NCBI GenBank assembly: GCA_031291395.1 | Contig: JARLJD010000109.1 | Location: 8,294-72,293 of the forward strand | Direction: 5' to 3' | From: Alphaproteobacteria bacterium | GTDB lineage: Bacteria; Pseudomonadota; Alphaproteobacteria; UBA9219 | DNA: 64,000 nucleotides | Shown: piece by piece, positions 1,650-62,408 of the stretch | How the letters are laid out: each line of letters opens with the position of its first letter | Numbering within the stretch: position 1 is the stretch's first letter | Notes under the pieces: model-generated | What the model was told of the DNA's origin: nothing | The model's database searches: none | What the model saw: the letters and a program-made list of their open reading frames with translations, nothing else | Made by a program: the position numbers and the translations under genes

Positions 1650-1868
1650 TGTTTAGCGATTAAGAAAACGATGGGGCAAGAGCGGCAGGATTCCCTCCCC
1701 CTCTATGGGGGAGGGTTAGGGGGGGGGGATCGCGCCGCAAGGATCGTCTTCTGACTTGCAAAGACATCTCATGCGGAAACATCACCCCCACCCTAACCCT
1801 CCCCCATAGAGGGGGAGGGGATTCTATCGCTTTTACGGCATCTTTTGCCTCACTTATTTCCTCATGTG
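1650..1868. repeat. MITE-like repeat family A, full-length copy with inverted terminal hairpins
   Basis: Left end attccctccccctctatgggggagggttaggg; right end cccaccctaaccctcccccatagagggggaggggattc. The ends are inverted repeats of each other, each containing a GGGAGGG/CCCTCCC hairpin. Confidence 0.75.
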
Positions 1869-20169: not shown

Positions 20170-20174
20170 AAAAA

Positions 20175-20251
20175 TGGTGCGCCCTGCGGGATTCGAACCC
20201 ACGACCTGCCGCTTAGAAGGCGGCCGCTCTATCCAACTGAGCTAAGGGCGC
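20175..20251 (-). tRNA. tRNA-Arg (TCT)
   Basis: The reverse complement reads GCGCCCTTAGCTCAGTTGGATAGAGCGGCCGCCTTCTAAGCGGCAGGTCGTGGGTTCGAATCCCGCAGGGCGCACCA. The anticodon loop CTTCTAA gives anticodon UCU. Confidence 0.85.
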
Positions 20252-24164: not shown

Positions 24165-24211
24165 TTTTTAATAAGTGACTCTGTTTGACAGTTTCAAATA
24201 ACGGTGAAGCG

Positions 24212-24395
24212 AAAGCGGCTGGATTCCCGCCCCCTTGCGGGGAGGGTCAGGGTGGGGGCGTGCCGCAAAAGCAAGTTTGGGGCTATGTAAAATCTTGCCG
24301 CAAGGTAAACCCCAACCGCATTTCCCAGCCGTTCTCCCCCCTCCCTAACCCTCCCCGCAAGGGGGAGTGGATTCCACCGTTCTTGCGGAACCGCC
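24212..24395. repeat. MITE-like repeat family A, full-length, variant sequence
   Basis: gcggctggattcccgcccccttgcggggagggtcagggtggggg ... ccctaaccctccccgcaagggggagtggattcc. Confidence 0.7.
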
Positions 24396-28890: not shown

Positions 28891-28947
28891 AGCAAGCTGA
28901 AGGGAATCTGAAGGGGAGAAATTTTTTTGATTCTGATGACAAAGGCC

Positions 28948-28995
28948 GTCATTCCAGCGAAAGCGGGAATCCAGCGCGAGCGATAGCGAGCCTAT
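28948..28995. repeat. repeat family C, solo arm
   Basis: gtcattccagcgaaagcgggaatccagcgcgagcgatagcgagc. It is related to the paired copies at 38388-38530 and 52083-52210. Confidence 0.6.
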
Positions 28996-29213
28996 GAGTC
29001 CAGCGGCGTTTGTTATAGAAACGCCGCTTTTTATATCGCGCGGACGTGCCTCAAGATGGATTTGCGCTTTCGCAGGAACAACGACTGTTTAGCGCGTGTC
29101 ATAAAATGAACAAGAAAATGGTTTAAAAAAAAATCAGGGGGGTGGTCTTTGGCCGCCTTTGTTCGGTCAGAAACCATCTTTCGCAAGATTAACGATCAGC
29201 AAAGGAGGGTGTC

Positions 29214-29659: not shown

Positions 29660-29715
29660 TGGCGGGATTCCCTCCCCCATAGAGGGGGGGGGATTCTACC
29701 GTTTTTGCAGCGGAG
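29660..29715. repeat. MITE-like repeat family A, short copy
   Basis: ggcgggattccctcccccatagagggggggggattctaccg. Confidence 0.7.
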
Positions 29716-30169: not shown

Positions 30170-30493
30170 TGCGGTTTTCTCCCTAATTTTGACGAAAGAG
30201 CGGAAGTGATTTTGATTCTTTGGCGCGATACCTTCACAGTTGGAATTTTATTCGTGGAGAGTGTCAAAAATGTGGCGAAGCGAAAAGTAGGAGCGGCTCC
30301 CAGCCGCGACCCATTTCAAAAAAAAAGAGTCACGGCAGGAAATCCCTTCAACAAGAAAACGCTACCGGCGCTATTTCTGCAATGGGAAATTCCCCGCCCC
30401 CATAATCGTTATTGCAAGCCTTGGCTGAACATATTACGAAAATGGGACGCGGGCTTGAGCTGCGGCGTGCTGTGAATAACAACCGATCATCAA

Positions 30494-32113: not shown

Positions 32114-32169
32114 AGAGGGACATAGGCGGCGGTGGGATATACTTCTGGCCGATACGATTGTGACGTTCG

Positions 32170-32235
32170 TAGGAGCGGCTTCCAGCCGCGACTGTTGTCG
32201 TAAAAAAAAGGCCGCGGCTGGAAGCCGCTCCTACG
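32170..32235. repeat. repeat family B, perfect palindrome (likely bidirectional terminator)
   Basis: gtaggagcggcttccagccgcgac ...a8... gccgcggctggaagccgctcctac, between convergent genes. Confidence 0.7.
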
Positions 32236-33376
32236 AGAAAGCGTGATTTGTGTTATTCTGTAGTATTATCATAACCTTCCATAATTCCCCCATTTCCGCG
32301 GGCGAGGTCAGTTTGTCGAGGGCGGCGACGATTTTATTTTTTTCCGGCGGCGAGGCTTCGCGTTTGTAGGCTTGCGTTTTTATGCCGAGTTCCAAGAGAA
32401 AATCGCCTTGGCCTTTCAGGTCTGTGACCCGCGCGCCTTGCGTTTCCGCCGCGCGGCGCAGGGCGGAGAAATCGACGCCAACCGTTATATCCGTTTGACC
32501 CGGGGACGTCAGAAGGTTTGTATAAATATGCTGGCTCCAAGCGGCAAAGGTCGGCTGACCGGAGGGCGCGGCGTGGCCGTAATCTATGACAAGCGCGGTT
32601 CCCCCATGCCGGACGATATGCGCGGAAATTTTCTCGATGATTTGGCGGGATTGGTTGGATATTTCGTAGGCGCCCCACGGTTTTGCTTCTTTCAGATTAT
32701 CGTTGAGGAATTTTTTGGTCGAGGGATCGGTTATTTTCTCGTCCACGAAAAACAGGCTTCCGTTTTTGCAATCGACGCGGCGTTCCATCCAGCCTGACGG
32801 GGCGTTTAGGAACAGCCGCGCCGGAATATTGTCGAAAAATTCATTGGCGATGACGAGGATCGGTTCGGCATTAAGCTGGGCGAGGTTTTCGATATGAACG
32901 GGGGAAAACTTCGCCAGAATTTCCTGTTGCAGGGCGCGCAGGGTCGCATTGCTTTCGATCAGGCGGATGTTCAGGGCTTTATGAAAATCCGGCGCGGATG
33001 ATGTGGCGCGCAACAGGTCGTTCAGCAAAGTGCCGCGGCCGGGGCCGAGTTCGAGGAGGGTGAAGGATTCGGGTTTTCCCATTTTCTCCCACGCGTTCAG
33101 GCACCAGACGCCGATCATTTCTCCGAACAGAGGGCTGATTTCGGGGGCGGTGTGGAAATCCCCGTGCGCGCCGATGGGATTGCCTTTGCGATAATAGCCG
33201 TAGCGGGGATGTTGCAGCGTTATCTCCATATAACGCTCAAGCGTTAGGGGGCCTTGCCGTCGGATGATGTCTTTGAGGATCGGCACGAGGGGCGCGGCGG
33301 CGCGGTTTATTTGAAAGCGAAGATAGCGGTTGGCAAGGAACTGTTTGAAGCGGCGGATGTATTTGGGGCGTTTCAT
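32231..33376 (-). CDS. MidA-like class I SAM-dependent methyltransferase (DUF185 / NDUFAF7 family)
   Basis: 381-aa C-terminal portion of track ORF 32231..34555, with LELGPGRGTL motif I and DUF185-like sequence. The start is set at MKRPKY (ATG complement about 33374-33376); the upstream extension is antisense to mnmA. Coordinates may be off by ±1. Confidence 0.6.
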   Translation of the reverse strand: MKRPKYIRRFKQFLANRYLRFQINRAAAPLVPILKDIIRRQGPLTLERYMEITLQHPRYGYYRKGNPIGAHGDFHTAPEISPLFGEMIGVWCLNAWEKMGKPESFTLLELGPGRGTLLNDLLRATSSAPDFHKALNIRLIESNATLRALQQEILAKFSPVHIENLAQLNAEPILVIANEFFDNIPARLFLNAPSGWMERRVDCKNGSLFFVDEKITDPSTKKFLNDNLKEAKPWGAYEISNQSRQIIEKISAHIVRHGGTALVIDYGHAAPSGQPTFAAWSQHIYTNLLTSPGQTDITVGVDFSALRRAAETQGARVTDLKGQGDFLLELGIKTQAYKREASPPEKNKIVAALDKLTSPAEMGELWKVMIILQNNTNHAFS

Positions 33377-35570: not shown

Positions 35571-38282
35571 TCACCCGTTCGCCGCATGCAATTCTTCTTT
35601 GATTTGCTGCAGGTGCCCGTCGAGGATTCCGAGGGTGTCGACCAGTTCCGTTAGAATCTCCGCTTGTTTTTCGAGTTGGACTTGCGTGGCAAAATCAGAG
35701 ACGGATCTGGTTGGCGCAAGCGTCGGCTTGGCGGTCAGACGGGTTTCTATTTTATCGAGTTGCCCTGCAATTTCTCCGACCAGACTGGCGCGCGAGGCTT
35801 CGATCTGCGCCGACACCTGAAACCACTGGTCGAGGAATTGCTGCTGCATCTCCGGCGGAATGGAACATGTCGGCATCGGGATGGGTTTGCCCGCTTCCGC
35901 TTGCGCGGCCTCTGCCGCCTGACGAGTCGCGGCGAGCTCTTGACCGAACGCGCTGAGCGCCAGATTGGTTTCCCCCTGCGCGGCGGCGATCTTCTCGCCA
36001 AGCGCGGCGATGTCGTTTTGTTCGCTTAGATTCTGCAGTTCTTCCCGCAAATTCTGGCGCAAGTCGCCGGGCAAGGCCGAAGCCAGAATGGCGACTTTGC
36101 CGTTCAGTTCGGCCAGTTCCGCGACTTTTTCCTCTAGAACGGAAAGCTGGTTTTGCTCCTTCAAAACTTGCAGCTCCTCCCGCAAATTCTGGCGCAAATC
36201 GCCGGGCAAAGCGGAGGCCAAAATGGCGACTTTGCCGTTCACTTCGGCCAATTCCGAAATCTTTGCGCCGAGATCGGCTATATCGTTGTGCGCGGTTATG
36301 CGTTGCAAATCTTCCTGTAAATTGGAGCGCATTTGGTCGGGCAGGGCGGTGACAAACGCGGCAATCCGTTCGTGCAATGCGGTCAACGATGCCGCTACGG
36401 CCTCCTTCTGCTCCGCATGATTTTGCGCGAGGTTTTGTTCCAAAGCCCCGGCCAAGCCCGCTTGCGCGTCTTTCTGTTCGTCAAGTTTGATTTGAAGCGC
36501 CGCCAATTGTCCCGCGATATGTTCAAACTGGCTTGCTAAGGGAACCAAAGCGGATTCCGGCGCGGCTCCAACCTGAATGTTTGTTTGCCCCTCCAGCTTG
36601 TTTTGCACCAAGGCCAATTGGCTTGCGATTTGTTCAAGCTGACTTTTCAAAGGCGCTGCAATCGCGTCCGGCGCAGCGCCTTTTTCCAAGGCCTCCGCAA
36701 AATAGGCATGCGCGTTTGTTTGCTCGTCCAGTTTAACCTGTAAGACATCCAACTGCCCCGCGATATGTTCGATCTGGTCGGTCAAAGGAGCCAATACGGA
36801 TTCTTGCGTTGCCGCGCCGACAGGCGTGTTCGCCTTTTCGTCCAGCCCGTTTTGCAGCGTCGTCAACTGATCCTTGATCTGGTTCAACCGTTCGGCCAGC
36901 GCGGCGAATTGCGCTTCGGGGGCGTTGTTTTTGATGTTCTCCGTCGTTTCGGCCAGAACTTTTCCGCCCGCTTGCAGCAAATTAATCGCGCCGAACAAAC
37001 GCTCGCCCAGATCGTCCGCCGTCGAGGAAAGTTTGTTTAGCGTTTCCCCTGCTTGTTCGGCGTTCGACTTCAAACCGATTTCGCTGGTGGCCAAAGACTG
37101 CAACGTTTGCGCGATCTGCTTGCCCGTTATTTGCGTAATCTCGGCAAGCCCTTGAGCGCGATCCTGAATAAGCGGGATCAAGCGGGTCAACTGATCGGCG
37201 GCGTGCGCGTGCGCGTTTTTCAAATTTTCCGCCGAACCCGTCATCTCGGCAATCGCCTGTTTAATCTGCATATCGCCACTTTGCCCGCTTTTGGCAATAT
37301 TTTGTAAAATCGTTTCGACTTTTTGCGCTAGCGCGGCGACGGACTGCTTTTGTAGCGCAACGGCATCGGTCAGCGTCGCGGCCTGCGCGCGGATGGTTTC
37401 CGAGTCGCCGGAGATCGCCTTCATCATTGCTTCGAACAGAGAGCGCGAACCGCCTTCAAACCGCATGCGCACGGGGCCTTGTTCGCTGAGCAGCGACAGA
37501 TCGGGCAGGTGGCTGAATTGATATCGCGCCAGATCAACGGCGCGCGCCAACTCGCCGATCATGTCCTGCCGTTCGATGCCCCAAATGGCGGTGCGCATGT
37601 CGCCGCGCGCCATATTCTGGATGCTTTGCGCCAGCGCGCGCATGGGTGCGGATTGCCGGTCGCGTAAAACCAAATAAATGCCGGCGGCGCAAGCGGCCGC
37701 GATGATCAGGCTGCTCCAACTGACCAAGGTCAGTAGCATCGCCCAGAACTGCATCCCTTTTTGCGCCGCAAGCCGCGCCGAGGCATTGGCGGCCGCGTCC
37801 CGCGTTTCCAAAACCGGCAAAGTCGCATAAAGCGGCGCAAGATCGGCGGCGGTGAATTCATTTGCCCCTGTTGCGTCCGCAGGCGCGTCGATTTTCTGCA
37901 GCGCTCCATCGAACATCGCGGCAATCGCGGTCAATTCGCGGTGCGTCTCGGCGGAAGTTGTGTCAGGCAGATGCGCGACGATATCATCCGCCGATTTGAT
38001 CAGTTCTTTCATATCGGCAAAGTTCGACGCGTCGCGCGTCGAGACATATTTCTGCGCAAGGCCGACAAATCCCCCATAGCCCCAATCGCGGCGCAAACTG
38101 TCGAACATATCCTGATTGCCGCCCAAAGCGTTATCGGGCGCGGCCAGCACTGTCTCCGCGCGGTCGAGCTGATATTTCATATACCCCGCCCCGCCGATCA
38201 TCGCCACGCAGACAAAGACTGTAAGGCTAAGCGCAAAAGCAGCAAAACGACTGACGCCGGAGAAGGGAGAGTTGGGGGACAT
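35571..38282 (-). CDS. large membrane-anchored HAMP-domain coiled-coil protein with internal tandem repeats
   Basis: Two TM segments flank a periplasmic region of about 200 aa. A HAMP-like segment follows (PMRALAQSIQNMARGDMRTAIWGIERQDMIGELARAVD), then about 600 aa of heptad-rich sequence with repeated blocks (e.g. VAILASALPGDLRQNLREELQ twice). The start is set at the internal Met preceding TM1. Confidence 0.45.
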   Translation of the reverse strand: MSPNSPFSGVSRFAAFALSLTVFVCVAMIGGAGYMKYQLDRAETVLAAPDNALGGNQDMFDSLRRDWGYGGFVGLAQKYVSTRDASNFADMKELIKSADDIVAHLPDTTSAETHRELTAIAAMFDGALQKIDAPADATGANEFTAADLAPLYATLPVLETRDAAANASARLAAQKGMQFWAMLLTLVSWSSLIIAAACAAGIYLVLRDRQSAPMRALAQSIQNMARGDMRTAIWGIERQDMIGELARAVDLARYQFSHLPDLSLLSEQGPVRMRFEGGSRSLFEAMMKAISGDSETIRAQAATLTDAVALQKQSVAALAQKVETILQNIAKSGQSGDMQIKQAIAEMTGSAENLKNAHAHAADQLTRLIPLIQDRAQGLAEITQITGKQIAQTLQSLATSEIGLKSNAEQAGETLNKLSSTADDLGERLFGAINLLQAGGKVLAETTENIKNNAPEAQFAALAERLNQIKDQLTTLQNGLDEKANTPVGAATQESVLAPLTDQIEHIAGQLDVLQVKLDEQTNAHAYFAEALEKGAAPDAIAAPLKSQLEQIASQLALVQNKLEGQTNIQVGAAPESALVPLASQFEHIAGQLAALQIKLDEQKDAQAGLAGALEQNLAQNHAEQKEAVAASLTALHERIAAFVTALPDQMRSNLQEDLQRITAHNDIADLGAKISELAEVNGKVAILASALPGDLRQNLREELQVLKEQNQLSVLEEKVAELAELNGKVAILASALPGDLRQNLREELQNLSEQNDIAALGEKIAAAQGETNLALSAFGQELAATRQAAEAAQAEAGKPIPMPTCSIPPEMQQQFLDQWFQVSAQIEASRASLVGEIAGQLDKIETRLTAKPTLAPTRSVSDFATQVQLEKQAEILTELVDTLGILDGHLQQIKEELHAANG

Positions 38283-38387
38283 GATGATGAAGGAAATGGG
38301 AACGGGGAAGGCGGGGGGATTATGGTAAATTTTGGGTGGAAAAGCAATCGGTTCATGGGGCATGCTTACCCCCACGTCAAAAAAAAT

Positions 38388-38530
38388 GTCGTTATTCCAG
38401 CGAAAGAGGGAATCCATCTTGAGGCGCGTCTGCGCCGATAAAAACAACTGCATTTTCAATGGAACTGCAGTTGGACTTTTATGCTCGCTATCGCGAGCGA
38501 TGGATTCCTGCTTTCGCGGTAATGACGATC
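38388..38530. repeat. repeat family C, full element with terminal inverted repeats
   Basis: gtcgttattccagcgaaagagggaatccatc ... gatggattcctgctttcgcggtaatgacgatc. Confidence 0.65.
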
Positions 38531-43881: not shown

Positions 43882-43899
43882 AATCAGTGGTGCCGCAAC

Positions 43900-44055
43900 A
43901 GCGGCGGAATCCCCTCCCCCTCTATGGGGGAGGGTTAGGGTGGGGGTGGTGGTTATACACAAACTGCTTTTGATTATGCAAAACAGTTGTTGTGGCACGT
44001 TCGCCCCCACCCTACCCCTCCCCCATAGAGGGGGAGGGAATCACGCCGTTTTCGT
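43900..44055. repeat. MITE-like repeat family A, full-length
   Basis: gcggcggaatcccctccccctctatgggggagggttagggtggggg ... cccccaccctacccctcccccatagagggggagggaatc. Confidence 0.75.
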
Positions 44056-44999: not shown

Positions 45000-46202
45000 A
45001 TGGTGGAAACGGCTGATTTTCTCGTGCTGGGCGCAGGCGTGATCGGCTTGAACATTGCGCGCGAATTGGCTGAGCGGCACAAGGGCAGCCGCATCGTTGT
45101 ATTGGAAAAGGAGCAATCGCTTGGCGCCCACGCCAGCGGTCGTAACAGCGGCGTATTGCATGCCGGTTTCTATTATACGGCGGACAGCCTGAAGGCCAAG
45201 TTTACGCGCGACGGCAATCGGGAAATGACATCCTTTTGCGATACGCGTGGTTTGCGCATCAACAAGTGCGGTAAACTGGTCGTCGCGCGCGACGAAAGCG
45301 AACTTTCCGGACTGGAAACGCTTCTTCAGCGAGGCCGCGCGAACGGCGTCGATCTGCACAGGATAACGGCGAAAGAAGCCAAAGAAATCGAGCCGCGGGT
45401 TAAAACGTGCCAATACGCCCTCTATTCTCCGACAACATCCTCCGTTGATCCTTGCGAAGTGATGAGCGCCTTGGGTAAAGAGGCAAACAGCAATGGGGTT
45501 GATCTACGTTTCGGCGAAAAATATCTTGGGTTTAAATCCGGACGCGTCATAACGAGCCGAGGCGCTTACGCATGCGGGTATGTCGTGAATGCCGCTGGTT
45601 TATTTGCCGACCGCGTCGCGCGGGATTTTGGGTTCAGCCAAGGCTATTATCTTCTGCCGTTCAAAGGATTGTATCTTTATTCCGACGAGCCTGCAGGCGA
45701 ATTATCGACCCACATCTATCCTGTGCCTAATCTGGCGCACCCGTTTTTGGGATCCCATTTCACCGTAGCGGTTGACGGCCATATCAAGATCGGGCCAACT
45801 GCCATACCCGCGTTTTGGCGCGAGCAGTACACTTGGCGCGATAATTTCAACCTTCAAGAGCTTGTCGAGACGGCGTGGCGGCAAGTCGGCTTGCTGTTTA
45901 ACGCCGGTTTTGATTTCAACCGTTTGGCTGTCGAGGAACTTCATAAATATTACCGCCCCTATCTTGTCGCGCAAACCACCGCTCTTGCCGAGGGGGTTAG
46001 GGTGGGGGATTACAAAACCTGGGGGAAACATGGAATTCGAGCGCAACTTGTCAGGAAAGACACAAAGTCTCTCGAAATGGATTTTGTTTTGGAAGGCGAC
46101 AAAAAGTCGATTCACGTGCTTAACGCCGTTTCGCCAGCCTTCACTTGCTCGATTCCGTTCTCTCAATACGTTGTTGATCGGATAGCGGATTTTGTTCGAT
46201 AG
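45000..46202 (+). CDS. FAD-dependent oxidoreductase, L-2-hydroxyglutarate oxidase/dehydrogenase-like (LhgO)
   Basis: N-terminal dinucleotide-binding fold DFLVLGAGVIGLNIAREL. The DAO-family length and motifs resemble LhgO. Confidence 0.6.
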   Translation: MVETADFLVLGAGVIGLNIARELAERHKGSRIVVLEKEQSLGAHASGRNSGVLHAGFYYTADSLKAKFTRDGNREMTSFCDTRGLRINKCGKLVVARDESELSGLETLLQRGRANGVDLHRITAKEAKEIEPRVKTCQYALYSPTTSSVDPCEVMSALGKEANSNGVDLRFGEKYLGFKSGRVITSRGAYACGYVVNAAGLFADRVARDFGFSQGYYLLPFKGLYLYSDEPAGELSTHIYPVPNLAHPFLGSHFTVAVDGHIKIGPTAIPAFWREQYTWRDNFNLQELVETAWRQVGLLFNAGFDFNRLAVEELHKYYRPYLVAQTTALAEGVRVGDYKTWGKHGIRAQLVRKDTKSLEMDFVLEGDKKSIHVLNAVSPAFTCSIPFSQYVVDRIADFVR

Positions 46203-47114: not shown

Positions 47115-47118
47115 AAGC

Positions 47119-47513
47119 GCCAGACGGTCTATAAGCCGGGTTTTGTCATCGCATTGCTGCAATGGACGATCATTCATCTGGGACGTTTGTTGCCAAACGC
47201 CTCAAGCAACCAACCCGAGCCGCGCGCGGGGAAAGCGCCGCGCACCTATGATACGAATATCAGGTATGCGCTATGCGGCTCCTATTCGGTTTTGCTTCGG
47301 GTGGGGTTTTCCGTGCCGCCTTTGTTGCCAAAGACGCGGTGCGCTCTTACCGCACCTTTTCACCTTTTCCCTCCCTTACGAGAAGGTAGTTTGTTTTCTG
47401 TGGCACTTTCCTTCGAGTCGCCCCGACCGGACGTTATCCGGCACCCTTTTCCCCTGAAGCCCGGACTTTCCTCCCCAACCTGAAGGAAGGGGCGATCATC
47501 CGACCGTCTGGCG
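47119..47513 (-). ncRNA. rnpB: RNase P RNA, bacterial type A
   Basis: The reverse complement carries GGAGGAAAGTCCGGGCT (P4), GGGTGCCGGATAACGTCCGG, AAGGGTGAAAAGGTGCGGTAAGAGCGCACC, CACGGAAAACCCCACCCGAAGCAA and AGATGAATGATCGTCCA...ACAAAACCCGGCTTATAGACCGTCTGG. It is colinear with E. coli M1 RNA, and the P1 pairing is CCAGACGGTC/GACCGTCTGG. Confidence 0.85.
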
Positions 47514-53031: not shown

Positions 53032-54240
53032 ATGACCTTCATCAACGAAAACTTTCTCAAACTTTCCGAAACCTATTTGTTTGTCGAAATCGGGCGGCGC
53101 GTCGAGGCTTATTGCAAGACGCATCCCGAAGCCGCGATCGTTCGCTGCGGCATCGGCGACGTTACGGAGCCTTTGCCCGACGCTTGCATTAAGGCGATGC
53201 ACAAAGCGGTCGATGAAATGGCCGCGCGCGAAACTTTTCGCGGTTATGGGCCGGAGGCGGGGTATGAATTTTTGCGTCATGCGATCGCTGAAGGTGATTT
53301 CCGCCAGCGCGGCATTGAAATCGCCGACGATGAGATTTTTATTTCCGACGGCAGTAAATGCGATTGCGCCAATTTTCTGGATATTCTGGGTGCGGGCAAT
53401 CGCATTCTGATGCCCGATCCGGTCTATCCCGTCTATGCCGACACCAATATTATGGCAGGCAACGCGATTTCTTTTTCGCAAGCGACTGCTGAAAACGGTT
53501 TCGTTCCCGCGCCGCCCGATGCGCCTGCCGATCTGATTTATCTTTGCTTTCCCAACAATCCGACCGGAGCCGTCGCGACGAAAGAACAACTGGCGGCGTG
53601 GGTCGCCTACGCGCATCGACACGATGCGATCATCCTGTTCGACGCGGCCTATGAATCTTTTGTGCGAACGCCTGATCTGCCAAAGTCGATTTATGAGATT
53701 CCGGACGCGCTGGATTGCGCCGTTGAAATGCGCAGCTTTTCCAAAAGCGGCGGATTTACGGGATTGCGCTGCGGCTACTGCGTCGTGCCGAAAGCTGTCA
53801 AGGGACGCAAACAAAGTGGCGGCGAAAAATCCCTGCATGCGCTGTGGTCGCGCCGCCAATCGACTAAATTCAACGGCGTCGCCTATATCGTGCAACGCGC
53901 GGCCGAGGCTTTGTATTCCGATGAGGGCAGGGCGCAAGTTGCGGCGCTGACAGGATTCTATTTGGAAAATGCGCGCCTTCTGGCCGATGCTTTGACTCGC
54001 GCGGGAAGATCGTTCGTCGGGGGCGTCGATGCGCCCTATCTGTGGGTTAAGGGAAACAAGGGCATGACGAGTTGGGACATGTTCGCGCATTTGCTGGAAC
54101 AAGCAGGGATCGTCGCAACGCCCGGCAGCGGCTTCGGCGCGAAGGGCGAGGGGTATTTCCGGCTTTCGGCATTCAACATTCGGGAGAATATCGAAGAAGC
54201 GTGTCGGCGGTTGGCGGCCATAAGCCTTGAAAAACTATAA
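53032..54240 (+). CDS. dapL: LL-diaminopimelate aminotransferase
   Basis: 402-aa fold-type I aminotransferase. The N-terminus FLKLSETYLF plus SFSKSGGFTGLRCGY (the PLP-Lys region) match DapL. Confidence 0.75.
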   Translation: MTFINENFLKLSETYLFVEIGRRVEAYCKTHPEAAIVRCGIGDVTEPLPDACIKAMHKAVDEMAARETFRGYGPEAGYEFLRHAIAEGDFRQRGIEIADDEIFISDGSKCDCANFLDILGAGNRILMPDPVYPVYADTNIMAGNAISFSQATAENGFVPAPPDAPADLIYLCFPNNPTGAVATKEQLAAWVAYAHRHDAIILFDAAYESFVRTPDLPKSIYEIPDALDCAVEMRSFSKSGGFTGLRCGYCVVPKAVKGRKQSGGEKSLHALWSRRQSTKFNGVAYIVQRAAEALYSDEGRAQVAALTGFYLENARLLADALTRAGRSFVGGVDAPYLWVKGNKGMTSWDMFAHLLEQAGIVATPGSGFGAKGEGYFRLSAFNIRENIEEACRRLAAISLEKL

Positions 54241-54256
54241 GGAAAGGAAAGACATC

Positions 54257-54946
54257 GTGCGTCCTGAAACCACTCTTTTTATATTGACGTCCGTTGATGG
54301 AAAAATTTCAACTGGAGATACGGACCAGTTGGACGTCGATCAGGATTTTCCAAATATTCCAGGCATCGCTGAAGGCTTGACCCAATATTACGAATTGGAA
54401 AAAACGACGGATTTCTTTTCGTTGAATTCTGGCCGAGTTATGGCCAAGATCGGCGCTAACAGATATTTGCCTGATGTAAAAAACACTTTGTGCACTTTTA
54501 TCATTATCGATAACAAACCCCATCTTGAGGAGACGGGCGTTGACTACCTTAAAAAACGCTGCAAGGGTCTCATTCTGGTGACCAGCAATCCCCAACATCC
54601 AGCGTTTGCAAGAAAAGCGGATAACGGCTTGAGAATATTCTATTATGAGAAGAAGATAGATTTTCCCGATCTTTTTTCAAAACTAAAAAGCGAATGCGGT
54701 GTAGATCGCCTGACAATTCAAAGCGGTGGTTCATTGAATGCGCAGTTTGTCCGTTTGGGTCTGGTTGACCATCTTTCAATTGTGGTTGCGCCCGCCCTCA
54801 TCGGAGGGAAGAATACTTCGTCACTGATGGACGGAGAATCTCTTCATAATCTATGCGATCTTTCAAACATTAAGGCCTTGAGGCTCACAGAGTGCCGTGT
54901 TTTGGATCATTCTTATCTTAACCTGAGGTATGACCTTATAAATTGA
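54257..54946 (+). CDS. RibD C-terminal-domain / dihydrofolate-reductase-like reductase
   Basis: TLFILTSVDGKIS and LTIQSGGSLNAQFVRLGLVDHLSIVVAPALIGG. A GTG start at 54257 follows an AAGGAAAGGAAAG ribosome-binding site. AT-rich. Confidence 0.55.
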   Translation: MRPETTLFILTSVDGKISTGDTDQLDVDQDFPNIPGIAEGLTQYYELEKTTDFFSLNSGRVMAKIGANRYLPDVKNTLCTFIIIDNKPHLEETGVDYLKKRCKGLILVTSNPQHPAFARKADNGLRIFYYEKKIDFPDLFSKLKSECGVDRLTIQSGGSLNAQFVRLGLVDHLSIVVAPALIGGKNTSSLMDGESLHNLCDLSNIKALRLTECRVLDHSYLNLRYDLIN

Positions 54947-54981: not shown

Positions 54982-57507
54982 ATGCGCATAAGCCTTATCT
55001 GCGGCGGCCCTTCCGCCGAGCGCGGCATATCCTTAAACTCCGCGCGGTCGGCGATGGATCATCTGACGCCATTGGGGTGGGAGATCGTGCCGTTCTATTG
55101 CGATCTGGAACGCCATTTCTATCGCTTGTCGCCTTCGCAGCTTTATTCCAACACGCCATCCGATTTCGATTTCAAACTGGCGCATACGGCGCAGCCTTTG
55201 ACGGAAAGCGAATTCATCGCAGCGTGCCGCGAAACCGATCTTGTTTTTCCCGCCATTCACGGCGCGTTCGGCGAGGACGGGCAGTTGCAGGAATTGCTGG
55301 AAGCGCACGACATTCCCTTTGTCGGCTCTCCCGCCGCCGCATGCCGGTTGATGTTCGATAAGGCGATCGCCAACACGCATATGGCGCAGCACGGCTTTGC
55401 GACATTACCAAACTGCCGCATCGACGAAAGCGACGCGCCGGATGTTCGGTTGAAAAAAGCGAGCGATTTCTTTGCGCGCACTCACATCGACAAAGCTGTC
55501 GTGAAACCTTCCGCCGGAGGGTCGAGCCTCGGCGTCGCAAGCGCGGTAACGCCGCAAGAAGCCGCCGCGCGCGCCGAGGATATTTTTGCGCAAAAGCACG
55601 GTGCGCAAGCTCTGATTGAGCCTTATTGCCAAGGCCGCGAATTCACCGTCGTCGTTTTGCAAAACAAAAAGGGCGAGCTGGTCGCGTTGATCCCGACCGA
55701 AATCGACCTGATCGGCGGCGATCTGTTCACGTTCCGCCATAAATATCTGCCGACCTGCCACGTCGAATATCATTGCCCGCCGCGCTTTGCCGACGACGTG
55801 ATCGCGCGCATTCAGAAAGCCGCCGAGGTTCTGTTTACCTTTTTCGACATGCGCGATTTCTCGCGCCTCGACGGCTGGCTGTTGGACGACGGGCGTTTGA
55901 TTTTCTCGGATTTCAATCCTATCTCGGGCATGGAGCAAAACAGTTATCTGTTCATTCAGGGCAGCCGCATCGGCTTCACCCACGGCGATACGCTGCGGTA
56001 TATCGTCGCGCACGCGGCGGAACGGTATGGGATCAAAGCCCCTCTCCCCCCCCTTGGGGGGAGAGGGGTTGGGGTGAGGGGGGAAGTTGGGGTTTGTGAA
56101 TCCCTCGTCCCCCCTCACCCCCGCATCAAGTGCGGGGCAGGCTCTAACCCTCTCCCCCCAAGAGGGGGGAGAGGGAATCCGCCCACAAACATCCGCGTTC
56201 TTTTCGGCGGAACGACGGCGGAACGCCAAGTCTCTTTGATGTCCGGCACAAATGTGTGGCTGAAATTGTTGCACAGCGCGGATTATATGCCCGCGCCTTA
56301 TATCCTCGCGCCGGAACATGAAATCTGGCAATTGCCTTACAGCTTCACCCTCAATCACACGGTCGAGGAAATCCTCGCGCGGTGCGCCGAATCCGAAAAT
56401 ATTGTTGCGCGGCTGAAAGTCCTCGTCCCGCCTCTGCGCCAGCGTTTGGGCTTGCCGCCCTTGCCCGCCAACGCTTTTATCCAACCGCGCCGCATGAGCC
56501 TCGATCAATTCTGTCGGGAATCCGCCGATGAAAACGCCTTCGTGTTCATTGCCCTTCACGGCGGCGAGGGCGAGGACGGGACGTTGCAGGCGAAATTCGA
56601 CAGCTACGGACTTGCCTATAACGGCTCCGCGCCTGCGGCCTCGCATGTGTGCATGGATAAAAGCGCGACGGGCGACGTTTTGCGCGCTTTGAACGATCCG
56701 CTTTTGACCTCTGCCGGAAAAGTTTTGCTGACGGCGGGGCAGGGGGGACGGGCCGAAGCGATTTGGGCGGACGCCGTGCAAAAATTGAAAACCGCCGACA
56801 TCCTCATCAAGCCGCAAGCCGACGGCTGTTCCGCGGGAGTCGTGCGTTTGCAATCCGCGCAAGAATTGAAACTGTATCTGCAAGCTTTGGCGCAAGGGCA
56901 AACGATGCTGCCCGCGGGCACGCTGGCGCATCAACCGATGATGATCGAATTGCCTGAACAGGCGGACGCCTTCATGCTCGAACCCTTTATCGTCACTGAC
57001 GCTATTTATATCTCCGGCCTTCATCTTACGCACACGCCGCGAACCGGCTGGATCGAATTGACGGTCGGCGTGTTGGAAGAAAAAGGCGTTTATCACGCCC
57101 TGTCGCCCAGCATCACCGTGGCCAAAGGCCATGTCCTCTCGCTGGAGGAAAAATTTCAGGGCGGCACAGGCGTCAACCTGACCCCGCCGCCTGCCGACAT
57201 CATTTCCGGCGAGCAAATCGACCTGATCAAAAGCAAAATTGAAAAAACCGCCAATGCGCTAGGCATCGAAGGCTACGCCCGCATCGATATTTTCTTTAAC
57301 ACGCGCAGCAACCAGACAATGGTCATCGAAGCCAACACTTTACCGGGACTCACCCCCTCGACGGTTATTTATCATCAATCCCTAGCCGAAACCCCGCCGC
57401 TTGCGCCGCGCGAGTTTTTGGCGAAATTGGTGGAATTCGGCAGGGAACGGCAGGCGCGAGGATTGGAAGAAACGCGATCTGTGGCGCAAGCGGTGAGAGA
57501 ATTATAG
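54982..57507 (+). CDS. tandem (double) D-alanine--D-alanine ligase-like ATP-grasp protein, linker encoded by a family-A repeat
   Basis: Residues 1 to about 353 and about 400 to 841 each resemble a complete Ddl (N-domain MRISLICGGPSAERGISL / IRVLFGGTTAERQVSLMSG; E.NT.PG(L/M)T C-terminal motifs). The roughly 47-codon linker is the repeat copy at 56041-56183 with no stop codon in this frame. Confidence 0.6.
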   Translation: MRISLICGGPSAERGISLNSARSAMDHLTPLGWEIVPFYCDLERHFYRLSPSQLYSNTPSDFDFKLAHTAQPLTESEFIAACRETDLVFPAIHGAFGEDGQLQELLEAHDIPFVGSPAAACRLMFDKAIANTHMAQHGFATLPNCRIDESDAPDVRLKKASDFFARTHIDKAVVKPSAGGSSLGVASAVTPQEAAARAEDIFAQKHGAQALIEPYCQGREFTVVVLQNKKGELVALIPTEIDLIGGDLFTFRHKYLPTCHVEYHCPPRFADDVIARIQKAAEVLFTFFDMRDFSRLDGWLLDDGRLIFSDFNPISGMEQNSYLFIQGSRIGFTHGDTLRYIVAHAAERYGIKAPLPPLGGRGVGVRGEVGVCESLVPPHPRIKCGAGSNPLPPRGGRGNPPTNIRVLFGGTTAERQVSLMSGTNVWLKLLHSADYMPAPYILAPEHEIWQLPYSFTLNHTVEEILARCAESENIVARLKVLVPPLRQRLGLPPLPANAFIQPRRMSLDQFCRESADENAFVFIALHGGEGEDGTLQAKFDSYGLAYNGSAPAASHVCMDKSATGDVLRALNDPLLTSAGKVLLTAGQGGRAEAIWADAVQKLKTADILIKPQADGCSAGVVRLQSAQELKLYLQALAQGQTMLPAGTLAHQPMMIELPEQADAFMLEPFIVTDAIYISGLHLTHTPRTGWIELTVGVLEEKGVYHALSPSITVAKGHVLSLEEKFQGGTGVNLTPPPADIISGEQIDLIKSKIEKTANALGIEGYARIDIFFNTRSNQTMVIEANTLPGLTPSTVIYHQSLAETPPLAPREFLAKLVEFGRERQARGLEETRSVAQAVREL
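56041..56183. repeat. MITE-like repeat family A copy lying in-frame inside a coding region
   Basis: cctctcccccccccttggggggagagggg ... ccccctcacccccgcatcaagtgcggggcaggctctaaccctctccccccaagaggggggagagggaatccgcc. Confidence 0.7.
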
Positions 57508-57511
57508 CTCC

Positions 57512-59059
57512 CTACTTCCTCTCAATCACCGCTTTCACATCCCTCCACCGCATCGCGCCTGTCACGTGCAGCGCGGCGGCGTAGGCGATTCCTGATAGGC
57601 CGATCAAGGCGCTTAGAGCGAGGATTTCTTGCATGATGCCCTTCATTGGGATCGCGGTCCAGCCGTATTGCGTCAAGACAAGAGAAACGCCGGACATGAT
57701 CGCGGCGCAGAGGATGATTTTTTTGATCCGCCCCACCAGCTTCTCGTCGCAAATCGGGAAATTATGGCGGCGCAGATGGTAGTAGTGCAGCGCGGCGTTC
57801 AGGGTGACGGCGATGCTGCTGGCCAGCGCGATGCCGATATGTTGCAGCGGCCCTAACAATAGGATCGATAAAATAACGTTGGTGGCTATGGCGACAAGGG
57901 CGGCTTTGACCGGCGTTTTGGTGTCTTGGCGGGCGAAAAAATCGGCGGCGAAAACCTTGACCAGCAAAAAACCAGGGATGCCGAGCGCATAGGCGCGCAA
58001 AGCTTGAACCGTGGCGACGGCGTCCTGATGCTTGAAAGCGTTGTGCTCGTATAACGTCTGGACAATGGGTTGCGCGATGACGATCAGCCCGATCATAGCG
58101 GGTAGGCCGAGCAGGAGGGAAAATTCGATTGCGCGGCTGTTGAAATGGCGGATCTTCGCCGCGTCTCCGGCCGCTACATGGCGCGCTAGCAAAGGCAGCA
58201 GGGTCGTGGCGACCGCTATGCCGACAATGCCCTGAGGCAGAGAGTTCAGACGGTCGGCGTAATACAAATGGGATATGGCACCCACAGGCAAGAACGAGGC
58301 AAGGTTCGTCGAAATCAGCAAATTGATCTGGGACGCGCCCGCGCCGACGGCGCCGGGGCCTATGCGGCGGAACAGCTTGGCTCCCGCCTCGCTTAAATGC
58401 GGGCGCAGCAAGGGAATGGACGCGCGCGCGCGATAGCAGCTTATCGCCAGCCACGCGCATTGCACGACGCCGGAAATCGTCACCGACCAGGCAAGCGCGT
58501 ATCCCACATGCCAATGGAGAAAGTGCGCCGCGAGCATGCCAAGGATCATGACGATGTTAAAGGCGACGGGAGCTGCCGCCCCCGGCGCGAATACCCCCCG
58601 CGCGTTCAAAACGCCGGTTTGCAAGGCCGTGACGGAAATCAGCGCAAGATAGGGGAAGGTGATGCGCCCGAATTCGACCGCGAGCCGGTATTGTTCCGAC
58701 TCGCGCGTGTAGCCGTATATTAGAAGCGACATCGCCTGCGGCATGAACGTCATCACCAGAACGGAAAGAGGAATTAACGCCGTCAGCAACAGCATCAACG
58801 CCTGTCCGGCAAAACGCTCTGCCGCGGCTTCGCCGTTCAGTTCATGTTCGGCGGCGTAAAGGGGAACGAAGGCCGCCGAAAACGCGCCCTCGGCGAACAG
58901 GTTGCGGAAGAGATTGGGCAAGCGCAGCGCCACGAAAAACGCATCCGCCTCCGGCCCTGCACCCAGAAAATTCGCGGTAAGAAAATCCCGAATGCAGCCC
59001 CCGATCCGGCTGACGATCGTCAAGCTGCTGACGGTGAAGAGGGAGCGGGCGAAGTTCAT
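57512..59059 (-). CDS. murJ: lipid II flippase MurJ (MviN)
   Basis: N-terminus MNFARSLFTVSSLTIVSRIGGCIRD plus 14 TM helices. The start is set at the internal ATG, complement 59057-59059. Confidence 0.85.
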   Translation of the reverse strand: MNFARSLFTVSSLTIVSRIGGCIRDFLTANFLGAGPEADAFFVALRLPNLFRNLFAEGAFSAAFVPLYAAEHELNGEAAAERFAGQALMLLLTALIPLSVLVMTFMPQAMSLLIYGYTRESEQYRLAVEFGRITFPYLALISVTALQTGVLNARGVFAPGAAAPVAFNIVMILGMLAAHFLHWHVGYALAWSVTISGVVQCAWLAISCYRARASIPLLRPHLSEAGAKLFRRIGPGAVGAGASQINLLISTNLASFLPVGAISHLYYADRLNSLPQGIVGIAVATTLLPLLARHVAAGDAAKIRHFNSRAIEFSLLLGLPAMIGLIVIAQPIVQTLYEHNAFKHQDAVATVQALRAYALGIPGFLLVKVFAADFFARQDTKTPVKAALVAIATNVILSILLLGPLQHIGIALASSIAVTLNAALHYYHLRRHNFPICDEKLVGRIKKIILCAAIMSGVSLVLTQYGWTAIPMKGIMQEILALSALIGLSGIAYAAALHVTGAMRWRDVKAVIERK

Positions 59060-59832
59060 GGGGAGCCGATCAACTGATAAAAAACGCACAAAGCCAGTGA
59101 CAGGCACAAGGCGGGGGCGAAGGGGAATTGTTTGTCATCGCTAATGCGGCGCCAGATCAGGTTAAACAAAACGCCGATAAAGCCTCCGAGCGCCAGAAAC
59201 CACGGCGCGGTGTGAAGGTGAAGCCACATCCCTGCCGCGGCGAACAGCTTAACGTCGCCCAGCCCCAACATTTCGCGCCCGCGCCATTTGCTGTAAACGA
59301 TCGCGAAGAACAGGCCGAGCGCGAGCAACGCGCCGGATGCGACCAGCCCGAAGAAAAAATCGTCGCCGCGGAAAAGAACGAAGAGGAAACCAAAAACTCC
59401 TAAGAGAAAATTCAGCCCGTCGGGAATAATGCCGAAATAAAAATCGATCAGCGCAATCGCGGGCAGCAAACCGATCCCCAAACACAAAGGCAACGCCGCC
59501 CACGACCAGTCCTGAAGATACATAGCAAGCCCGCCAAGCGCAAAGCCCACAAGCTCGCAAACCGGTTGTTGCCACACCCCTGTGCGCTGACCGCAAGGGC
59601 AGGGGAAGGACAATGTATCGGGACGCAATAGCCAGCCGATAAGCGGCGAAAGCTCTTGCCATGTATGCGGGCGCGAACAATAAACGCATTGCGGCCTGCG
59701 GCTTTCCCCGGGCAACCGATCTGCGCTGCGCCAACCAAACGCCATAGCCAAACTAGCCCCAATCAACCCCAACCCACCCCCGGCCAGAAGATGCAGGAGA
59801 TTGGCGATGATATGGTGGTTGTGGTGATGCAT
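59056..59832 (-). CDS. type IV prepilin peptidase (A24 family, PilD-like)
   Basis: N-terminal Cys tetrad CVYCSRP...CPCG, and the catalytic Asp motifs IDFYFGIIPD and GLGDVKL. The stop overlaps murJ by 4 nt. Confidence 0.7.
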   Translation of the reverse strand: MHHHNHHIIANLLHLLAGGGLGLIGASLAMAFGWRSADRLPGESRRPQCVYCSRPHTWQELSPLIGWLLRPDTLSFPCPCGQRTGVWQQPVCELVGFALGGLAMYLQDWSWAALPLCLGIGLLPAIALIDFYFGIIPDGLNFLLGVFGFLFVLFRGDDFFFGLVASGALLALGLFFAIVYSKWRGREMLGLGDVKLFAAAGMWLHLHTAPWFLALGGFIGVLFNLIWRRISDDKQFPFAPALCLSLALCVFYQLIGSP

Positions 59833-60869: not shown

Positions 60870-61120
60870 GGTTTTCTCCACGCCTTTATCGTACCACGCA
60901 AAGGCGAAAGTAATTAGCAAAAAACGCCTGTGGCACAGTCGTTTCTTAGCATTTTTGTGTTTAAGGAACGCTTAATATCGTATGGCTTTTTAGAGAATAT
61001 TTTGGGGGAACGCCTGCGGAATTAACGTAAAATTACTTTCACAGAAGATGCGGGGTTTTGTTAACGGATTGTTTGCTTTATATTCCGAATATTCCGACCA
61101 ATATTAAATAGCTCTTGTTC

Positions 61121-61188
61121 GTAGGAGCGGCTTCCAGCCGCGACCCTTTGTTCTTACGTCAACAGTCGCGGCTGGAAGCCGCTCCTAC
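61121..61188. repeat. repeat family B, perfect palindrome
   Basis: cttgttcgtaggagcggcttccagccgcgac ... gtcgcggctggaagccgctcctacgaacaag. A half copy lies at 30288-30315. Confidence 0.7.
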
Positions 61189-61202
61189 GAACAAGCGCAA
61201 AA

Positions 61203-62075: not shown

Positions 62076-62152
62076 TTTTATCTTTCTTTCGCCTTTATTC
62101 TCGTTTCTTATACTGTGACTTGAAGTGATTTTAAACTAAACTTGCCACAGAA

Positions 62153-62335
62153 ACGGCGGAATCCCCTCCCCCTCGCGGGGAGGGTTAGGGAGGGGGGAGA
62201 GCGACTGGGAAAGGCGGTTGGGAATGAGGAACGATCTTGCTGCAAGATTTCTTATAATTCCAAATTTGGTCTCTTGCGGAACTCCCCCCTCCCTAACCCT
62301 CCCCGCGAGGGGGAGGGGATTCTACCGCCCTTGCG
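62153..62335. repeat. MITE-like repeat family A, full-length
   Basis: aacggcggaatcccctccccctcgcggggagggttagggagggggg ... cccccctccctaaccctccccgcgagggggaggggattctaccg. Confidence 0.75.
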
Positions 62336-62408
62336 GCACTGCTTCTTTCGCTTATAAAAGAGGCTCATTTATTCTCTCAGATGCCTAACCCCTAACCCCC
62401 GCCTTCCA

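Follow-up and report, generated by a model that had tools for sequence, protein, structure and literature searches.

Positions 54982..57507 (+ strand) of the stretch of DNA analysed here (64,000 nt, hereafter the window) hold an open reading frame (ORF) that codes for two D-Ala-D-Ala-ligase-like (Ddl-like) halves joined by a repeat-derived segment. This arrangement raises the question of whether the repeat fused two adjacent ddl-like genes, or silenced the second of them, or whether it entered the linker of a protein that was already double. The first-pass annotation had offered both possibilities. The ORF is complete: it starts with ATG, has a Shine-Dalgarno-like AAGGGA motif 8-13 nt 5' of the start, and runs through 841 codons to its stop without any internal stop. 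The N-terminus of the product (MRISLICGGPSAERG) aligns with the N-termini of orthologues, and the entire sequence is identical to the NCBI MAG protein P4M13_05250 (P0001), which is known from one contig only and comes from a short-read MAG. Upstream, a domain scan placed a class I/II aminotransferase (53032-54240, + strand) and a RibD_C-domain protein (54227-54946, + strand). The convergent neighbour (57512..59107, - strand) is the lipid II flippase MurJ (PF03023, 378 bits), which provides a peptidoglycan context. With the RibD_C gene on one side and murJ on the other, the double ddl gene lies outside the dcw cluster and does not occupy its ddl slot (murB-ddl-ftsQ).

Both halves of the protein are indeed Ddl-like. 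The Pfam domains Dala_Dala_lig_N (PF01820; 148.4 bits against a cut-off of 34.6) and Dala_Dala_lig_C (PF07478; 123.1 bits against 24) each match in two stretches, one per half. Based on Pfam and NCBIfam matches, Ddl structures, an AlphaFold model and an alignment of 108 sequences (A4), we delimited an N-terminal Ddl module (residues 1-350; 54982..56031, + strand) and a C-terminal one (residues 402-841; 56185..57504, + strand). Taken separately, each half matches D-Ala-D-Ala ligase models and solved Ddl structures. The curated cut-off of the NCBIfam D-Ala-D-Ala ligase model TIGR01205 is 245.65 bits; half 1 (163.5 bits) and half 2 (129.6 bits) both fall below it and the whole protein (287.3 bits) passes. 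Since the cut-off is reached by the whole protein only, each unit appears to be a divergent Ddl. The AlphaFold model of the 841-residue protein is confident in both lobes (pLDDT 90.6, pTM 0.90), and the top 50 matches in a PDB structure search are all Ddl, D-Ala-D-Lac or D-Ala-D-Ser ligases (TM scores, target-normalized, of 0.73-0.89). Compared lobe by lobe, the model shows the three-domain ATP-grasp fold of Ddl and matches solved structures with TM scores of 0.8-0.89.

Putative active-site motifs are found in both halves. Half 1 has AERGIS (E13), KPSAGGSSLG, HKYLP (K254-Y255), RLDGW (R295, D297) and FSDFNP (D310, N312), their residues being invariant or nearly so in alignment A4; half 2 has AERQVS (E414), KPQADGCSAG, EEKFQGG (K724-F725), RIDIFF (R767, D769) and IEANTLPG (E783, N785), with residues that are invariant. 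Serine counterparts (S181/182 in half 1, S617 in half 2) are conserved across the family. The reference was the set of catalytic and ligand residues of E. coli DdlB, which we take to be E15, S150, K215-Y216, R255, D257, E270 and N272. According to equivalences taken from motifs, not from structural superposition, half 1 has Asp (D310) where DdlB has Glu270, and half 2 has Phe (F725) where DdlB has the omega-loop Tyr216. Half 2 also carries an insertion of ~80 residues in its N-domain relative to canonical Ddl. In both halves the window copy retains every residue that is invariant across the 108 homologues. Overall, the protein resembles the canonical homodimeric ligases (E. coli DdlB, 2dln/1iow; DdlA; VanA-type) in its fold, in its ATP-grasp and Mg/ATP residues as judged from motifs and, as far as relatives are concerned, in its dcw position. 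Unlike them, it has two units in one chain, each scoring below the NCBIfam cut-off on its own. The two units probably pack together within one chain much as the subunits of the usual Ddl homodimer do, and would be tethered by a short exposed linker.

The orthologue comparison that the first-pass annotation had proposed gave a clear outcome: single fused genes, not two, with the closest relatives lacking the element. Homologues fall into more than 100 clusters and are single double-Ddl proteins of ~800 residues, 50-80% identical over full coverage; in a profile search, full-length matches came from at least 150 clusters (built at 50% identity). All of the aligned homologues (107 of 107) are fused as a single protein, and in no orthologue does the second half have a start codon of its own. 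The native linker of the repeat-free homologues is ~15 residues long. Fused double Ddls without the element are present in Alphaproteobacteria, Opitutales and plants, and the family also has representatives in Methanosarcina. Because the two halves are only 24% identical to each other, the fusion is considered to be ancient. Judged from these homologues, it predates the repeat and was not created by it.

Gene order in relatives is also informative. In four of them (L003, L004, L005 and L246) the order is murC/murB-[double ddl]-ftsQ-ftsA(-ftsZ), and in two orthologues (L001, L002) the gene lies outside the dcw cluster, as in the window, and has no insert. P0133 combines the double Ddl with a MurF-type Mur ligase, and P0184 combines it with both MurF and alanine racemase. 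Together, gene context and these additional fusions indirectly support the view that the gene probably encodes the lineage's D-alanine-D-alanine ligase, with an old two-unit architecture. A literature search for a bacterial tandem Ddl returned nothing.

The stretch joining the two modules (codons 354-401, nt 56041-56184) is derived from the repeat. Its palindromic core, located by hairpin and fold analysis (56039..56176, no strand assigned), is 138 nt long and has 68.8% G+C, compared with 57.3% in the rest of the gene. Two hairpins with perfect 12-bp stems (56039-56068 and 56148-56175) are mutually inverted copies, and the corresponding arms (56039-56068 and 56147-56176) have 3 mismatches over 30 positions. 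Between the two outer hairpins lies a G-tract/C-tract stem of 14 bp (56071-56121), so that all three main stems (12, 14 and 12 bp) are perfect. A small hairpin (56122-56134) follows this stem, and a remnant of the outer arm (GGAATCCGCC) reaches ~56186. The element's RNA is predicted to fold with -121.5 kcal/mol (z = -7.7); mRNA structure of this stability could impair translation. Two of the six frames of the element are free of stops, one antisense frame and the frame of the host ORF, and the element is read through without a stop codon, as originally described.

The first-pass annotation had regarded the joining stretch of about 47 codons as an exact copy of a repeat family of the window (family A). 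The origin from the repeat stands. However, the copy is not exact but a divergent variant, with stems CCCTCTCCCCCC instead of the CCCTCCCCC seen elsewhere in the family. The net gain is also smaller: DNA alignment with orthologues gives +111 nt (37 codons) between conserved flanks, with ~24-39 nt (about 8-13 residues) of the native linker lost. The insert represents the sole length difference at the linker between the window copy and its orthologues, all of which lack this element. No direct repeat indicative of a target-site duplication is visible at the element junctions in the DNA alignment. A near-identical strain with an empty site is absent from the databases (none among 5.8 billion proteins, the closest, P0002, being 79-80% identical), and therefore we infer the time of insertion and the exact boundaries, the latter from orthologues at 76-78% and to about ±10 nt. 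A second copy of the exact variant composite is likewise missing from the window and from 240 fetched loci, the latter giving only 45-nt arm matches (91-93%).

Four other composite copies in the window are all intergenic (none with an assigned strand). Those at 1676..1846, which consists of two inverted hairpin-plus-G-tract arms, and at 43890..44048 and 62143..62338 were detected by both self-comparison and hairpin scan, as were two single hairpin units, one near the first composite (1182-1233) and one intergenic (29661..29693); the composite at 24202..24393 was detected by self-comparison. The linker element shares its architecture with the four intergenic composites and is 75-84% identical to them over aligned positions, with alignment scores of 50-64 (at most 38 for shuffles). 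In total, the window contains 11 hairpin units of this type, whereas shuffled sequence contains 0-1. Being shorter than 300 bp, devoid of a transposase, bounded by terminal inverted repeats and multi-copy (these 11 units and the four other composites), the element has several of the characteristics of a MITE. One more candidate, 45979-46008 within ORF 45000-46202, was dismissed as a chance resemblance, as it has no hairpin arm and reads as ordinary protein. We also rejected the reading of the hairpins as intrinsic terminators, because no T-run follows any of them. At gathering thresholds, Rfam reported only RNase P RNA and two tRNAs and no family for the element. Permissive scans of two element copies produced just far-sub-threshold matches to generic miRNA hairpins, which we judged to be due to chance.

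Taken together, these data are very probably explained by a palindromic repeat that was inserted in-frame into the linker of an ancestral double Ddl and tolerated there, in the manner of Rickettsia palindromic elements (RPEs). This corresponds to the first of the two possibilities offered initially, and it agrees with the fused state of every aligned homologue, with the absence of the element from the nearest ones and with the insert being the only disordered segment of the model. Residues 362-397 (56065..56172, + strand) are the only ones with pLDDT < 50 in the AlphaFold model and form a predicted disordered loop, in line with the suggestion of a Gly/Pro/Arg-rich flexible linker. The notion of a mobile repeat remodelling a coding region likewise holds, with the addition that a native linker pre-existed and was partly replaced. 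The course of events would be as follows. Two diverged Ddl ATP-grasp units were combined in one polypeptide long before the insertion. A palindromic repeat, G+C-rich and non-autonomous, would then have landed in the linker in the lineage of the window, replacing about 8-13 of its residues and adding a net 111 nt in one of two stop-free frames. This multi-copy repeat consists of two 'hairpin + G-tract' modules in inverted orientation, and its other copies in the genome are intergenic. The insert would be translated as a Gly/Pro/Arg-rich disordered loop and, because this loop sits between folded units, the enzyme presumably stayed functional and the insert-bearing allele survived. Selection would filter random insertions so that in-frame, stop-free and surface-exposed ones remain, as for RPEs.

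Insertions of this kind have recurred. The same repeat family is found in-frame in P0025 (in the same linker as in the window copy), in P0047 and P0053 (in a loop) and in P0041 (in the C-terminal tail). As the nearest relatives of each carrier lack the insert, the insertions are independent, and we count at least three or four such events within the double-Ddl family. In P0047 and P0053, which are 78% identical at the amino acid level, the hairpin arms are 92% identical in DNA (33/36 and 34/37), compared with 60% (29/48) for the element centre and 56% (40/72) for the coding flank. In unrelated bacteria, genes that carry the module in-frame code for a Pol III alpha-like protein, ComEC and a glycosyltransferase. 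Modules were spanned by 23 long open frames, 10 of which were scanned against Pfam: 3 were confirmed, and four others, in which no domain was detected, we took to be spurious frames of G+C-rich sequence.

The core of the repeat, ~35 nt comprising a hairpin and a G-tract, extends far beyond this genome. It reads TTCCCTC(TC)CCCC, a loop of 4-8 nt, GGGG(GA)GAGGG, 2-3 nt and then GGG(G)NG(A)GGGGG, and is present across many bacterial phyla, ranging from Chloroflexota and Planctomycetota to Alphaproteobacteria, almost always between genes (about 1% of the sampled modules are coding). We found no linked transposase: all-versus-all clustering of ORFs from 120 module loci of many phyla returned generic paralogues such as ABC transporters, and no Y1 gene recurs near the modules in these loci. 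A literature search with the raw module sequence retrieved human primers only. It is conceivable, if rather unlikely, that we are dealing with an undescribed pan-bacterial module, either a DNA/RNA structure with a function of its own or a substrate for some widespread enzyme acting in trans, which is spread horizontally or maintained by selection and for which the double-Ddl linker is a recurrent coding landing site. Such a module would have a 3' arm that doubles as half of a G-quadruplex-capable tract, and would preserve its stems under translation, with 92% DNA identity in the arms compared with about 58% in the surroundings.

We regard as improbable that the insert is kept in the ligase for a function of its own, be it as a longer flexible tether between the lobes, as a hairpin or G-quadruplex at which transcription or translation would pause, or as a recognition site. 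The perfect stems and the long linker of the plant homologue would fit such a role, yet most family members, all closest relatives included, do without the insert, and there is neither a U-tract or other known regulatory signature nor an Rfam match. The high conservation of the arms in P0047 and P0053 compared with centre and flank might indicate constraint; however, it could also result from gene conversion with other copies or from recent insertion. That the same linker was struck twice independently (in the window copy and in P0025) is less telling, because linkers tolerate insertions and these are expected there anyway. Lower still is the probability that the insertion inactivated the gene, leaving a young pseudogene in which stops have yet to accumulate while another ddl supplies the function. 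The view of the genome is confined to the 64-kb window, outside which a second, canonical ddl may lie, and the gene is located between the RibD_C gene and murJ rather than in the dcw cluster, but the insert-free orthologues L001 and L002 are outside the cluster too. The very stable mRNA structure in the middle of the ORF would fit inactivation. The 841-codon frame, however, is intact, all residues invariant in the homologues are retained and both lobes are modelled with confidence. Moreover, the insert of P0047 and P0053 has persisted through about 20% protein divergence with the catalytic motifs intact. We give even less credence to an assembly artefact, in which the metagenome assembler would have joined a copy of the repeat into the gene. 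A short-read MAG, a multi-copy element family and a protein represented on one contig only could invite this suspicion. Nevertheless, the flanks are colinear with orthologues, and the net difference in length is divisible by three and falls in a frame without stops. The variant is distinct and occurs nowhere else in the window, so that an artefact would have no obvious donor; analogous in-frame inserts are also present in homologues from independent assemblies of other projects. Finally, the second initial proposal, that the element fused two adjacent independent ddl-like genes or silenced the second, is refuted. It is true that the second half lacks its own start codon and that the element is located exactly between the halves, but element-free homologues are already single ORFs with a 15-residue linker, Opitutales and plants share the architecture, and the halves have diverged to 24% identity.

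The preferred reading, a tolerated insertion into an ancestral double Ddl, has a close parallel in RPEs, which are palindromic repeats of ~100-150 bp located in-frame in ORFs and translated (PMC10969869). Like RPEs, the window repeat is non-autonomous, palindromic, in-frame in a housekeeping gene and translated where the fold can accommodate it; it has entered several genes or lineages, and its retention across species is possible. Unlike RPEs, it resides in a host other than Rickettsia, has 69% G+C and hairpin-plus-G-tract modules, and its core module is found across many phyla. Furthermore, nearly half of RPEs are coding, in contrast to about 1% of the sampled modules. Given the G+C content and the non-rickettsial host, sequence homology to RPE families seems unlikely. 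REP/BIME/REPIN sequences are similar in being short G+C-rich imperfect palindromes, intergenic and of high copy number, with single units and inverted doublets that form long hairpins. However, the unit of the window repeat lacks the 5' GTAG motif, and in the 120 loci no RAYT/Y1 transposase or other recurrent gene is found beside the copies. REPs are usually species-specific, whereas the core of this repeat is conserved across phyla and one of its copies is translated.

As for the host protein, cytoplasmic enzymes of peptidoglycan-precursor synthesis can be naturally fused, often through disordered linkers, and such Mur-pathway chimeras include MurC-Ddl of Chlamydiae/Firmicutes, MurE-MurF and others (PMC10214165). 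The double Ddl belongs to the same kind of fusions except that its partners are two paralogous units and not two pathway steps; no Ddl-Ddl fusion is listed in that survey. The plant DDL-DDL fusion has the same two-unit architecture and aligns colinearly from end to end. Between Coffea DDL and the window protein, identity amounts to 39% (residues 1-823 of the latter against 81-954), and the two share signatures such as QLYSNTPxDFDFKL and LSLEEKFQGGTGxNLTPPP; the Coffea sequence P0167 matches the family profile with 865 bits in a single stretch (profile positions 1-787), and a Populus protein is also a member of the double-Ddl family. In contrast to the window protein, plant DDLs have an N-terminal extension of ~80 residues (presumably a transit peptide), a longer native linker and no palindromic repeat. 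The Ddl of moss has been reported to be closest to those of FCB-group bacteria (PMC9434261).

For annotation, it follows that the 841-residue ORF should be treated as one real gene, and that splitting it or flagging it as disrupted is unwarranted. The event itself is of a kind known from Rickettsia but involves another repeat, one that is very widespread, and it provides a clear non-rickettsial case in which a palindromic repeat within an essential gene is translated. It strengthens the case for interdomain linkers and surface loops as the entry points of selfish repeats into proteins. The module, very widespread and apparently unnamed, is a likely source of many spurious Gly/Pro/Arg-rich 'hypothetical proteins' in metagenomes. 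In addition, the 'plant-specific' DDL-DDL fusion turns out to have full-length bacterial counterparts; their genes lie in the dcw cluster, and in some of them MurF and alanine racemase are part of the same fusion. These proteins offer a bacterial model in which to study the reasons for the duplication and fusion of Ddl and for the Phe that its second unit carries at the position of the omega-loop Tyr.

The ORF at 54982-57507 (+) comprises 841 codons, begins with ATG and has no stop inside the frame. The sequence AAGGGA, resembling a Shine-Dalgarno motif, lies 8-13 nt upstream of the start, and the N-terminus of the encoded protein aligns with the N-termini of its homologues. Pfam detects the Ddl N-terminal (148 bits) and C-terminal (123 bits) domains twice each. 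When scanned separately, either half matches D-Ala-D-Ala ligase models and solved Ddl structures; neither reaches the NCBIfam Ddl cut-off when scored alone. In the AlphaFold model (pLDDT 90.6, pTM 0.90), for which an alignment of 108 sequences served as input, each lobe resembles Ddl, D-Ala-D-Lac or D-Ala-D-Ser ligases according to Foldseek (TM 0.73-0.89). Motif residues matching the DdlB catalytic set are invariant or nearly so across the family in both halves, and in the 108-sequence alignment the window protein retains all family-invariant residues. Family-wide differences include Asp310 and Phe725, which occupy what we take to be the positions of Glu270 and Tyr216 in DdlB, respectively. 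We infer that the double Ddl is the housekeeping D-Ala-D-Ala ligase of the window's lineage. Its two lobes would pack as an intramolecular counterpart of the Ddl homodimer, and each of the two predicted sites may be active.

A search of 5.8 billion proteins found an exact match in a MAG of Alphaproteobacteria and over 100 homologue clusters (50-79% identity), nearly all of about 800 aa and covered full length. An exhaustive profile search yielded no fewer than 150 clusters (50% identity level) that match the family profile end to end; among the named ones are Opitutales (Verrucomicrobiota) and two plants, Coffea and Populus. Aligning sets of 22 and 108 sequences showed each homologue to be a single polypeptide whose linker measures about 15 aa (consensus YGI-xxxxxPxxKxxxAxK-VRVLFGG). 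The first-pass annotation had considered that two adjacent ddl genes might have been fused, or the second silenced, by a MITE. This is refuted by homologues that lack the insert and are already fused, and by the mere 24% identity between the two halves, which makes the duplication ancient. The Ddl-Ddl fusion is thus ancestral and not a product of the repeat. The plant nuclear DDL proteins of Coffea eugenioides (P0167, XP_027176337.1) and Populus deltoides (P0218) are colinear with the bacterial family over the full length (39-47% identity), and the plant 'fusion of two DDL genes' therefore probably arose before plants acquired it, as judged from sequence. The Coffea protein is 39% identical to the window protein over aa 1-823 and 40-47% identical to other bacterial or unlabelled members. 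Moss Ddl has been placed nearest to FCB-group bacteria (PMC9434261), and bacterial Ddl-Ddl is not among the chimeras given in a survey of the Mur pathway (PMC10214165).

In four relatives (L003, L004, L005 and L246) the gene order is murC/murB-[double ddl]-ftsQ-ftsA(-ftsZ), the exact place of ddl in the division/cell-wall cluster. Further contexts are also peptidoglycan-related (DAP-pathway genes, PBP1A), and in the window murJ is convergent with the double ddl. Some members continue into a MurF-type Mur ligase (P0133, 1262 aa), and a single one (P0184, 1638 aa) into MurF plus alanine racemase. These enzymes catalyze the steps flanking Ddl, before and after, in the D-Ala branch, and such fusions place three or four steps of the branch within one polypeptide. 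Other N-terminal extensions are a GNAT acetyltransferase domain (P0086) and a helix-turn-helix (HTH_3-like) region of about 97 aa (P0113-P0115). The 5.08 Mb chromosome of Methanosarcina sp. T3 (CP195120.1) also carries a double-Ddl gene (L247:8001-10409, 62% identical to the window protein), having non-cell-wall neighbours (an LRR protein, an AAA ATPase and, nearby, a Y1 transposase); the gene appears to have been acquired horizontally by an organism that has no murein.

Codons 354-401 (nt 56041-56184), which join the two halves, are encoded by a G+C-rich multi-hairpin. Two hairpins with perfect 12-bp stems (56039-56068 and 56148-56175), each the inverted copy of the other, enclose a 14-bp G-tract/C-tract stem plus a further, small hairpin. 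The layout is a hairpin CCCTC(TC)CCCC/GGGG(GA)GAGGG, a TTAGGGNGGGGG-like tract, a variable centre, the complementary C-tract and the second hairpin. The region folds as RNA with -121.5 kcal/mol (z = -7.7). Only two of the six frames are stop-free, and the ORF reads one of these. Composite copies of common layout occur at 1676-1846, 24202-24393, 43890-44048 and 62143-62338, all intergenic; every window copy other than that in ddl lies between ORFs. The ddl copy is 75-84% identical to these four (scores 50-64, shuffles at most 38); it is a divergent variant rather than exactly the family-A repeat, as initially described. The window contains 11 hairpin units (0-1 in shuffled sequence) and the two closest orthologous loci none, which suggests a lineage-specific expansion in this genome.

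Other repeats are also present in the window. A second, REP-like family (30287-30361, 32165-32249 and 61106-61198) is a near-perfect palindrome beginning with GTAG (GTAGGAGCGGCTTCCAGCCGCGAC...); at 61111-61198 it is arranged as an inverted doublet (34-nt arms, 97% complementary). A third (…GTCATTCCAGCGAAAGCGGGAATCCAG…) has copies in both direct and inverted orientation, separated by about 9.4 kb (28941-29090 and 38383-38527). Two tandem 135-nt direct repeats (35986-36255, 78% identical) within the ORF 35571-38459 (-, 962 aa) suggest a large protein in which a 45-aa unit recurs. Two similar tRNA genes, 18227-18300 (+) and 20178-20251 (-), lie inverted about 1.9 kb apart (71-nt arms, 75% complementary), with ORFs 18506-19483 and 19486-20202 between them. 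Class A bacterial RNase P RNA maps to 47116-47511 (-; 326 bits).

Relative to two orthologues, the DNA alignment shows conserved flanks, a net gain of 111 nt and no visible target-site duplication. As the palindromic core alone has 138 nt (69% G+C), some 24-39 nt of native linker were lost or replaced. At the protein level the window linker has 52 residues, 37 more than in the homologues. The exact protein is known from a single contig of a MAG, and no empty-site allele of the gene was found among the 5.8 billion proteins. Within the model, pLDDT drops below 50 only at residues 362-397 (nt 56065-56172), which correspond to the insert and form a coil running from helix 334-348 to strand 402-409. 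The simplest reading of the model is a disordered Gly/Pro/Arg-rich loop that would lengthen an already exposed tether. These observations bear out the other initial proposal, a genuine two-domain fusion whose linker tolerated an in-frame repeat.

The same repeat architecture is found in other family members: in the DNA of an extra segment in the same linker of P0025 (L003:2580-2690), in a loop of the second Ddl unit of P0047 and P0053, and in a new C-terminal tail of P0041 that runs into ftsQ. The insert is absent from the closest relatives of every carrier (80-84% identity), and the window protein is only 69% identical to P0025; the two linker insertions are therefore independent. In all, the family has undergone at least three or four such events. 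P0047 and P0053, themselves 78% identical, have an insert in common, with DNA identity of 33/36 and 34/37 in the hairpin arms, 29/48 in the element centre and 40/72 in the coding flank. The arm identity might be due to selection for the structure, to gene conversion or to separate insertions. Since the equally close P0040 lacks the insert, it may also have been lost once or gained twice. The P0025 contig additionally carries a bAvd/23S-rRNA-IVP family gene between murB and the double ddl (L003:1171-1506) and repeat units directly downstream of the latter (L003:4007-4143).

The building block of the repeat is a core of about 35 nt, TTCCCTCCCC, loop, GGGGAGGG-TTAGGG-N-GGGGG (stem variant CCCTCTCCCCCC), present in many bacterial phyla. 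Among the matches listed for species-representative genomes, the 20-nt core GGGGAGGGTTAGGGNGGGGG occurs in Chloroflexota, Planctomycetota, Deltaproteobacteria, Melainabacteria, Azospirillum, Bradyrhizobium, Gallionella and others, with the complementary arm immediately upstream in 114 of 129 cases. Among those listed for metagenomes, NN-GGGGTGAGGGGGG usually comes after the ddl-type stem variant. The 3' part of the core contains four G-runs and is G-quadruplex-capable; the hairpin sequesters two of these runs. The module loci came from genome (L006-L125) and metagenome (L126-L245) contigs. At 120 module-bearing loci neither a transposase nor any other gene was repeatedly adjacent to the module, Rfam gave no match, and a raw-sequence literature search returned nothing relevant and no name. 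Long open frames span 23 of 253 modules, and three are true coding inserts confirmed by Pfam: within HHH_6 (aa 1022-1031) of a Pol III alpha/DnaE2-like protein (L244:6114-10142, -), within the beta-lactamase domain (Lactamase_B, aa 621-627) of ComEC (L090:727-3153, +) and in the linker (aa 747-756) of a multidomain GT1...GT2 glycosyltransferase (L228:7079-11758, +). Insertion into genes is thus general, though rare (about 1%).

The element has the size, inverted repeats and copy number of a MITE but shows no duplicated target site, and no parent IS emerged from the 120 loci. Its intergenic copies resemble REP/REPIN doublets, except that they lack GTAG, and no RAYT was detected at these loci. 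In its behaviour the element matches Rickettsia palindromic elements, palindromes of about 150 bp inserted within the reading frames of metabolic genes where the fold can accommodate them (reviewed in PMC10969869). The window element differs in host, G+C content, modular hairpin/G-tract build, mostly intergenic copies and spread across phyla. The case is thus one of a palindromic repeat that is translated within a tolerant linker, a kind of event already known. Added interest comes from the repeated independent insertions in one enzyme family and from a module that is apparently unnamed and very widespread beyond the window's lineage.
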